The translations under genes and the position numbers were made by a program. A DNA stretch of 5,860 nucleotides. Source: a virus. Taxonomy: Duplodnaviria > Heunggongvirae > Uroviricota > Caudoviricetes. Below are positions 4,391 to 4,446 of this stretch, piece after piece. The notes below the pieces were generated by a model. The model saw only the letters and a program-made list of their open reading frames with translations. It ran no database searches and was not told the origin of the DNA. Numbering within the stretch: position 1 is the first letter of the stretch; each line of letters begins with the position of its first letter. The stretch is taken from IMG/VR virus record IMGVR_UViG_2695420651_000011, positions 1-5,860 of that record. One strand, given 5' to 3'.

Positions 4391-4431
4391 AAAAAGGGCG
4401 GACATCAGTTCATGGGCAAACAGATGCCGCC
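4391..4431 (-). terminator. Rho-independent terminator forming the DicF 3' end
   Basis: Minus-strand hairpin GGCGGCAUC...GAUGUCCGCC (about 9 bp with one bulge) followed by a UUUUU run (plus-strand AAAAA at 4391..4395). Confidence 0.65.
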
Positions 4432-4446
4432 AAACGTCACCAGAAA
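4391..4446 (-). ncRNA. dicF: DicF-like sRNA (~56 nt), variant sequence
   Basis: Minus strand reads UUUCUGGUGACGUUUGGCGGCAUCUGUUUGCCCAUGAACUGAUGUCCGCCCUUUUU. The 5' part (UUUCUGGUGACGUUUGGCGG) and the terminator tail (GCCGCCCUUUUUAAAGUGAAUU) match what I recall of K-12 DicF; the central part differs. Location immediately upstream of dicB as in Qin. Ends are approximate. Confidence 0.7.

Follow-up and report, generated by a model that had tools for sequence, protein, structure and literature searches.

The dicF locus and its prophage setting

The stretch of DNA analyzed here, a 5,860-nucleotide segment of a Caudoviricetes record that we refer to as the window, holds the early-left operon of a lambdoid prophage, with the gene order of the K-12 prophage Qin. 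In Qin the small RNA DicF (RF00039, b1574) occupies the slot (ydfC ... dicF ... dicB ydfD) that is taken in the window by a variant dicF. The features on which the following argument depends are listed below, from upstream to downstream along the minus strand.

4447 to 4790, minus strand: conserved untranslated region 5' of dicF, with 5 differences in 374 aligned positions relative to PPompW and near-identical to K-12 Qin
4391 to 4446, minus strand: variant dicF, assigned from an RF00039 match, alignments to K-12 Qin and PPompW, and its predicted fold
4427 to 4446, minus strand: 5' seed module of the variant (nt 1-20), identical to K-12 DicF, with nt 1-15 predicted as a single-stranded tail
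4402 to 4426, minus strand: replaced hairpin interior (nt 21-45), with KilS-type stem arms and its own loop, UUUGCCCAUGAA
4391 to 4401, minus strand: terminator stem base CCGCCC and U-tract, common to DicF, the variant and KilS in alignment and folds
4202 to 4407, minus strand: dicF-dicB spacer, or dicB leader, resembling STnc100 (RF02076, 32.1 bits)
4033 to 4221, minus strand: dicB, 62 aa, intact, 89% identical to K-12 DicB over 62/62 aa
3845 to 4036, minus strand: DUF1482 gene of the ydfD type that, as in K-12, overlaps the dicB stop (from the ORF list and the CB9615 and Sakai RefSeq annotation)

The dicB start lies 175 nt 3' of the variant dicF U-tract, and matching RefSeq genomes label the dicB homologue 'cell division inhibition protein DicB'; past the ydfD-like gene, the same strand carries an 823-aa exonuclease gene, followed by xis and int. 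Upstream of the variant dicF the matching genomes have ydfC and dicA/dicC-type regulators. In K-12, the region upstream of dicF holds the RNase E 5'-processing context (PMC9438474), from which processing at the variant locus may be extrapolated. To either side of the variant (~375 nt upstream, ~200 nt downstream), identity to the dicF loci of K-12 Qin and PPompW_132418, an ompW-integrating phage with a canonical dicF, is 96-99%. An antisense ORF of 124 aa (window positions 4412-4786, plus strand), which covers dicF and part of the upstream region and is unannotated as such in matching RefSeq genomes, is probably spurious.

The 801 nt around the variant are 100% identical to O55:H7 genomes, in which the prophage adjoins ompW, and in O157:H7 Sakai the variant allele resides in prophage Sp9 (HnrS/EcOnc10, also in Sp9, is a different sRNA). 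Compared with O55:H7 CB9615, the window has a mosaic make-up, and its int/xis module belongs to another prophage there: window positions 4000-4800, with dicF and dicB, are 100% identical to the CB9615 ompW prophage at 1.579 Mb, and positions 120-1400, the int/xis end, are 100% identical to the CB9615 prophage at 2.008 Mb. As a single block the whole window is present in no complete E. coli genome of the collection (best match, 96% coverage at 95.3%); the IMG/VR contig IMGVR_UViG_2698536379_000023 matches window positions 120-5639 at 100%. The integrase of the prophage copy in the window is disrupted by an insertion sequence, with its ORF (273 aa, positions 117-938, minus strand) coming to an early stop where the sequence enters the end of an IS3-family element (positions 1-119), which we take to be IS629/IS1203-like (TGAACCGCCCCGGGAATCCTGGAGACTAAACTCCC..., with an ORF beginning MTKNTRFSPEVRQRAV).

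The variant dicF itself comprises a 51-nt homologue (4446 to 4396) of the 53-nt K-12 DicF, followed by the U-tract (4395 to 4391). Read in the RNA sense from 4446 to 4391, it consists of TTTCTGGTGACGTTTGGCGG, CATCTGTTTGCCCATGAACTGATGT and CCGCCCTTTTT in succession, and the annotated K-12 DicF (b1574) of TTTCTGGTGACGTTTGGCGG, TATCAGTTTTACTCCGTGACTGCTCTG and CCGCCC(TTTTT). Nucleotides 1-20 and CCGCCC with the U-tract are the same in the two RNAs, whereas the 25-nt hairpin interior is not; the divergent central stretch singled out in an earlier, sequence-only reading of this DNA, CAUCUGUUUGCCCAUGAACUGAUGU, is exactly nt 21-45. The letter-by-letter comparison with K-12 DicF bears out the proposal made in that reading, i.e. 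a DicF-like sRNA with a conserved 5' ~20 nt and terminator and a divergent center. The interval proposed there, 4391-4446, proved exact; the strand had been left unstated, although the RNA letters given there are those of the minus strand. The anti-Shine-Dalgarno motif CUCC, which the canonical DicF loop presents within UACUCCG, is absent from the variant interior. The resemblance to DicF goes far beyond chance, as the E-value of the Rfam match, the near-identical flanks and the dicB gene that follows all show. The variant is a real feature and a member of the dicF locus by descent; an assembly or sequencing artefact was rejected because the identical sequence is present in 290 independent complete genomes.

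Fold, family scores and probable mosaic composition of the variant

In common with K-12 DicF and with KilS, an sRNA of the K-12 Rac prophage (b4833), the variant is predicted to fold into an unpaired 5' region, a bulged two-tier hairpin and a U-tract. Its predicted folding energy is -17.3 kcal/mol (z = -2.8), compared with -15.9 kcal/mol (z = -2.3) for K-12 DicF and -21.9 kcal/mol (z = -2.4) for KilS. The 5' tail of the variant (15 nt) is unpaired in both the MFE and centroid folds, and leads into a 13-bp bulged stem with a 6-nt apical loop, followed by UUUUU. In these models, the terminator architecture is kept despite the changed sequence of the 3' arm. A simple terminator scanner did not call the variant hairpin, because its rules (a 3-8 nt loop and a perfect stem) leave no room for a bulged stem enclosing a long interior.

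The Rfam DicF model (RF00039) matches the window end to end at 4445..4396 on the minus strand, with a score of 43.5 bits and an E-value of 3.1e-7. By calibration, K-12 DicF scores 76.7 bits and the KilS terminator, likewise sub-threshold, 39.1 bits. The model search that the sequence-only reading had proposed as a check is thus significant by E-value, but the score misses the curated gathering cutoff of 48 bits. Of the properties that define the DicF family, the variant has the dicB-operon location, the 5' pairing region with its upstream context, and the Rho-independent terminator with its U-tract; the two that it lacks are a score above the gathering cutoff and, on computed pairing, complementarity to ftsZ.

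The spacer between dicF and dicB also gives a sub-threshold match, in this case to STnc100 (RF02076), for which the gathering score is 47 bits. The homologous K-12 spacers score 34.4 bits in Qin (L001 2433-2642) and 28 bits in Rac, between kilS and kilR (L139 3223-3409). Together, the sub-threshold matches in the window, Qin and Rac suggest that STnc100 seems to correspond to the leader of kil-type genes in lambdoid prophages. In EDL933, 11 STnc100 copies are annotated, some of which are highly expressed (PMC5331693).

When the variant is aligned to PPompW, mismatches occupy 15 of 27 columns in the interior and 12 of 576 in the flanks (Fisher p = 7e-16); such clustering in the hairpin is not due to drift. 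In a four-way alignment, the 5' tail of the variant agrees with canonical DicF at 19/19 positions and with KilS, whose 5' region is unrelated, at 8/28, whereas the 3' arm with the U-tract agrees with canonical DicF at 11/15 and with KilS at 15/16. The 38 nt after the U-tract agree with canonical dicF at 35/38 positions and with KilS at 37/38, and the sequence further downstream at 60/64 and 37/65, respectively. The first ~40 nt of the spacer (4202..4407) carry KilS-type diagnostic bases, and its remainder is of the canonical type. Within the hairpin, the 5' stem arm of the variant is identical to that of KilS at 13/14 positions and the loop at 3/18. The stem is GGCGGCATCTG/CTGATGTCCGCC in the variant and GGCGGCATCAG/CTGATGTCCGCC in KilS, i.e. 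almost identical arms of the form GGCGGCATC[A/T]G ... CTGATGTCCGCC; the 12-nt loop, TTTGCCCATGAA, compared with 19 nt in KilS, is unique to the variant, its unique letters being GCCCAUGAACUGAUGU.

From these alignments, the variant looks like a mosaic of two prophage sRNA loci, with a DicF 5' seed, a KilS-type stem and a loop of its own, and appears best described as a DicF/KilS-type hybrid allele. The simplest reading would be that a KilS-family locus donated ~75 nt by gene conversion, as judged from ~7 informative sites; the left breakpoint of this patch would lie in the GGCGG stem base and its right breakpoint ~40 nt past the U-tract. A possible donor, with the variant loop joined to a 5' region that is not of the DicF type, was not found among at least 119 IMG/VR loci of the same stem type. 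Among the matches listed (L162-L243), the stem GGCGGCATCAG...CTGATGTCCGCCC is combined in IMG/VR with four or more loop types and with numerous unrelated 22-mers upstream, which suggests that the terminator-associated RNAs of this prophage slot form a modular family. Other loops on the KilS-type stem in IMG/VR are TTTCATTGCTGG, TTTAATTGCTGG, TTTTTCTTAGTCCTTT and TTTATTAGCTTT (e.g. L178, L193, L169, L206 and L243), and such combinations are possibly further uncharacterised sRNAs of the same slot.

KilS is a northern-verified, Hfq-associated sRNA for which its own promoter and a RIL-seq partner, yncL, are reported (PMC8175672); neither of the latter two is known for the variant. KilS and the variant both sit upstream of a small FtsZ-directed division inhibitor, kilR in the case of KilS and dicB in that of the variant. 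An Rfam-based table for EDL933 gives four DicF loci (PMC5331693), of which three are of the canonical type and the fourth, 'DicF_3', is TGTGTGTAGTCCTGGCGGCATCAGTTTTTTTCTTGAAGTTCGGCTGATGTCCGCCC; the variant is absent. In K-12, the 'DicF_3' sequence lies in the Rac prophage upstream of kilR, within KilS, of which it is the terminator half (L139 3406-3503, minus strand), and a distant-mode search with a 56-mer query found it in 1693/5426 genomes. The KilS paper mentions neither DicF nor the homology of the KilS and DicF terminators and leaders (PMC8175672).

Distribution of the allele in genomes and prophages

The 35-nt hairpin core of the variant is present at 100% identity in 290 of the 5426 complete E. 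coli genomes searched, usually as one copy each. Its carriers include Sakai (Sp9), EDL933, 86-24, TW14359, EC4115, O55:H7 and O121:H19, and it is also found in E. albertii NBRC 107761; in the O157:H7/O55:H7 lineage the variant is fixed. The canonical DicF hairpin core is found in 3916 of the same 5426 genomes, in up to five copies, and a search catching both types (with a DicF-type 60-mer) also returned 3916. Since the both-type and canonical-only counts are equal, variant carriers apparently always hold a canonical copy too, such that all 290 would have at least one, as judged from the counts rather than from a comparison of sets. O157:H7 TR01 has one variant and three canonical dicF copies.

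When GTDB species representatives and IMG/VR were scanned for the conserved 5' seed with any interior behind it, only two interior classes emerged, i.e. the canonical one, with scattered single-base changes, and the variant, with no intermediates between them. The variant interior is invariant in 23 IMG/VR loci, on at least six downstream haplotypes, and is found with different int modules; the allele has therefore moved between prophage backbones. The variant is a discrete allele rather than a product of decay. Its invariance in the 290 genomes is weak evidence, because most of these are clonal O157:H7, and the perfect conservation of the 5' seed is no specific sign of selection, because the whole upstream 375 nt are ~99% conserved.

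Small changes were seen at several dicF loci. The IMG/VR locus L142 carries a derivative of the variant in which the bulged U is changed to C (CTGATGCCCGCC), and a 1-nt deletion in the variant 5' seed (TTTTCTGTGACG versus TTTTCTGGTGACG), present in L140, L143 and L145, would weaken 5'-seed pairing. The dicF of Sakai Sp4 (L161 15720-15790, minus strand) is of the 'DicF_1' type: seed position 11 is A (GGTGACATTT), one G of the loop is replaced by A (CCGTAACTG), and ATATT stands in place of ATTTT just 5' of the RNA start; the canonical dicF copies within one EHEC genome are therefore also not identical.

The presence of multiple dicF copies in pathogenic E. coli, to which the sequence-only reading had also pointed, is documented (PMC5069750, PMC7873438). 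The comparison of Balasubramanian et al. was limited to dicF sequences that are >99% identical (PMC5069750), a limit by which the variant was excluded. RefSeq gives no feature at the variant site in matching genomes, an absence that is uninformative because the canonical copies, too, are unannotated in most genomes. DicF is not mentioned in the Hfq-CRAC and CLASH papers (including PMC4104026).

Predicted target pairing and interpretation

Published work indicates that the ftsZ RBS is bound by the 3' region of DicF and xylR by its 5' end; two mutants, DicF3 (altered at the 5' end) and DicF21, no longer regulate pykA, and DicF21 fails on ftsZ too (PMC5069750). The manX coding region is likewise bound by the 3' end of DicF (PMC5861419). 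Pairing energies were calculated with our own simplified windowed, accessibility-corrected scan (ftsZ region -120..+60), which for K-12 DicF gives the same sites on ftsZ, xylR and manX as the published mapping. The predicted sites are as follows.

ftsZ -28..-1 (RBS), with DicF nt 26-53: K-12 DicF -8.4 to -8.9 kcal/mol; variant -1.2, far from the RBS
xylR +9..+20, with DicF nt 5-15: K-12 DicF -13.4 kcal/mol; variant -13.4
pykA -18..+1 (RBS), with DicF nt 26-43: K-12 DicF -12.0 kcal/mol; variant none
pykA +29..+38, with DicF nt 4-13: K-12 DicF -9.5 kcal/mol; variant -9.5
manX +35..+53, with DicF nt 35-54: K-12 DicF -12.0 kcal/mol; variant -3.3

Pairing with ftsZ, the pykA RBS and manX is predicted to be lost because canonical DicF uses the replaced loop and 3' arm for these targets, whereas the 5'-seed targets, i.e. 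xylR and pykA +29..+38, should still be bound by the variant. The sequence-only reading had supposed that changes in a pairing region could alter the target spectrum or the strength of division inhibition, and had suggested that pairing with these leaders be predicted. The divergence does fall exactly on the part of the RNA that pairs with some of the targets; rather than a graded weakening, however, the predictions have the whole ftsZ/manX/pykA-RBS module replaced, leaving the xylR and downstream pykA sites unchanged.

On ftsZ -70..+30, the variant gave no duplex combining a hybrid energy of -10 kcal/mol or lower with a favourable total energy. When compared with 102 shuffled interiors on the same region, the variant was tied for bottom, in a control that favours the shuffles because shuffling destroys the hairpin. 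K-12 DicF ranked only in the top ~6%, which implies that energy alone discriminates weakly and that the argument leans on the published mutational mapping of DicF; the scan energies are thus supporting of that mapping and not an independent proof. Nor is there a compensatory change on the target side: identity of the ftsZ leader is 99% or more in 5389/5425 genomes and reaches 100% in an O157:H7 that carries the variant.

With pchA (Sakai ECs_1091), the scan predicts weak 5'-seed sites common to the variant and canonical DicF (-7.1 at the SD), and a weak site for canonical DicF only (-4.6, pchA +15..+34 with DicF nt 31-52). The canonical-only site, which the variant has lost, would fit the binding of DicF to the pchA coding region reported in work of 2019 by Melson and Kendall, who reportedly deleted four EHEC dicF copies ('dicF1-4'). 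A local target for the variant loop was sought in the window and in the prophage regions of CB9615 and Sakai, and nothing emerged beyond the trivial match of the loop to its own antisense; of the remaining duplexes, the best (-34.9) is inside the shuffle range of -30 to -36.

On balance we favor, with moderate confidence, the reading that the variant is a recombinant dicF allele with a canonical 5' seed and a KilS-type hairpin, predicted to be without ftsZ repression. Its transcription, processing, Hfq dependence and regulation, or the absence of regulation, we infer by analogy. The operon is normally DicA-repressed (PMC5069750). If it is transcribed, the variant hairpin would end part of the transcripts as an intrinsic terminator, and trimming by RNase E would, as in K-12, yield a ~51-56-nt Hfq-dependent sRNA. 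For the DicF family, the expected product is an Hfq-binding RNA of ~53 nt (or 72 nt), made by termination or by RNase III plus RNase E processing. The released RNA would keep the DicF 5' seed and would be without the module that represses ftsZ, manX and, via the RBS, pykA; division inhibition by the operon would then proceed via the intact DicB alone. The pairing models suggest that the variant is most likely a terminator-derived sRNA that no longer represses ftsZ.

It may be that the hairpin is purely a cis-acting terminator or attenuator of the early-left operon (tL-type, ahead of the kil-type dicB), with no role in trans and with a neutral change of its interior, an alternative that we consider unlikely, if still of appreciable weight. 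The occurrence in prophages of the same stem with at least four loop types and many 5' regions, as if only hairpin formation matters, is consistent with such a role, as are the hairpin stability kept in the variant and the lack of complementarity of its loop to local or validated targets. An RNA-seq table for EDL933, which covers the Rfam-defined DicF copies only, gives ~0-5 reads in LB for most of them (PMC5331693), and few or no reads would also be in keeping with a cis-acting element. However, both parental types are verified Hfq-associated trans-acting sRNAs (DicF, PMC5069750; KilS, PMC8175672), and in the variant the DicF seed, the U-tract and the processing context upstream are all intact; if transcribed, its RNA should pair with xylR at the same energy as K-12 DicF. 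At the other extreme, it is very improbable that the variant is functionally equivalent to DicF, still repressing ftsZ and adding to gene dosage. Although the locus, 5' seed and terminator are the same, and reviews count the EHEC dicF copies as one sRNA (PMC7873438, PMC11774850), the published ftsZ-pairing region (the 3' region and loop) is the very part that is replaced, the anti-SD CUCC is missing, and the best predicted duplex over the full ftsZ region scanned lies away from the RBS.

Neo-functionalisation, in which the new loop and 3' arm would have new targets in the host or in competing phages and the DicF 5' seed would be kept, is in our view rather improbable. The invariance of the interior on several recombined backgrounds and its fixation in O157:H7/O55:H7, together with its presence in O121 and E. 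albertii, argue for it; the apparently constant co-occurrence with canonical copies fits divergence after duplication, and the shuffling of seeds and terminators is documented for other EHEC prophage sRNAs (PMC4104026). Clonality, however, accounts for much of the invariance, the loop is partly sequestered in the predicted 13-bp stem with its 6-nt apical loop, and no candidate target emerged among the validated DicF targets and the local prophage regions.

The EHEC sRNAs EcOnc01/02/03 (AgvB/AsxR group; Tree et al. 2014, PMC4104026) resemble the variant in being multi-copy lambdoid-prophage sRNAs of modular build. They are Hfq-associated and combine a conserved terminator-proximal module with variable pairing modules that differ between the prophages of one genome (PMC4104026). 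They differ from the variant in belonging to another sequence family and in lying downstream of PR' rather than in the early-left operon. Furthermore, EcOnc01/02/03 have a constant 3' part and differ in their 5' part, whereas the variant retains the 5' seed and has exchanged the hairpin.

More speculatively, recombination between dicF and a kilS-type locus may have uncoupled the 5'-seed regulon from repression of ftsZ, manX and, via its RBS, pykA, giving a seed-swapped sRNA whose new loop has targets of its own, within a larger and so far unrecognised modular family of early-left terminator sRNAs of lambdoid prophages, among which recombination would shuffle 5' seeds, loops and stems; we put this forward tentatively, as a proposal that is on the whole unlikely.

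DicF is a textbook prophage sRNA that blocks cell division, and the dicF copies of EHEC have been linked to virulence control (pchA/LEE and stx2) and to filamentation under low oxygen. If a widespread EHEC copy has another pairing module, arguments from dicF copy number and the phenotypes of multi-copy deletions will need re-reading, and if the seed swap is true, EHEC has fewer ftsZ-directed DicF copies than counts including the variant suggest. Probes, primers and Rfam-based annotation will also handle this copy unevenly, given that it misses the Rfam threshold and that at least one published EDL933 list does not include it. More generally, the variant would show, in a clean natural case, how sRNAs evolve in a modular way when paralogous prophage loci recombine, and may serve as a natural mutant for separating the 5'-seed functions of DicF from its ftsZ function.
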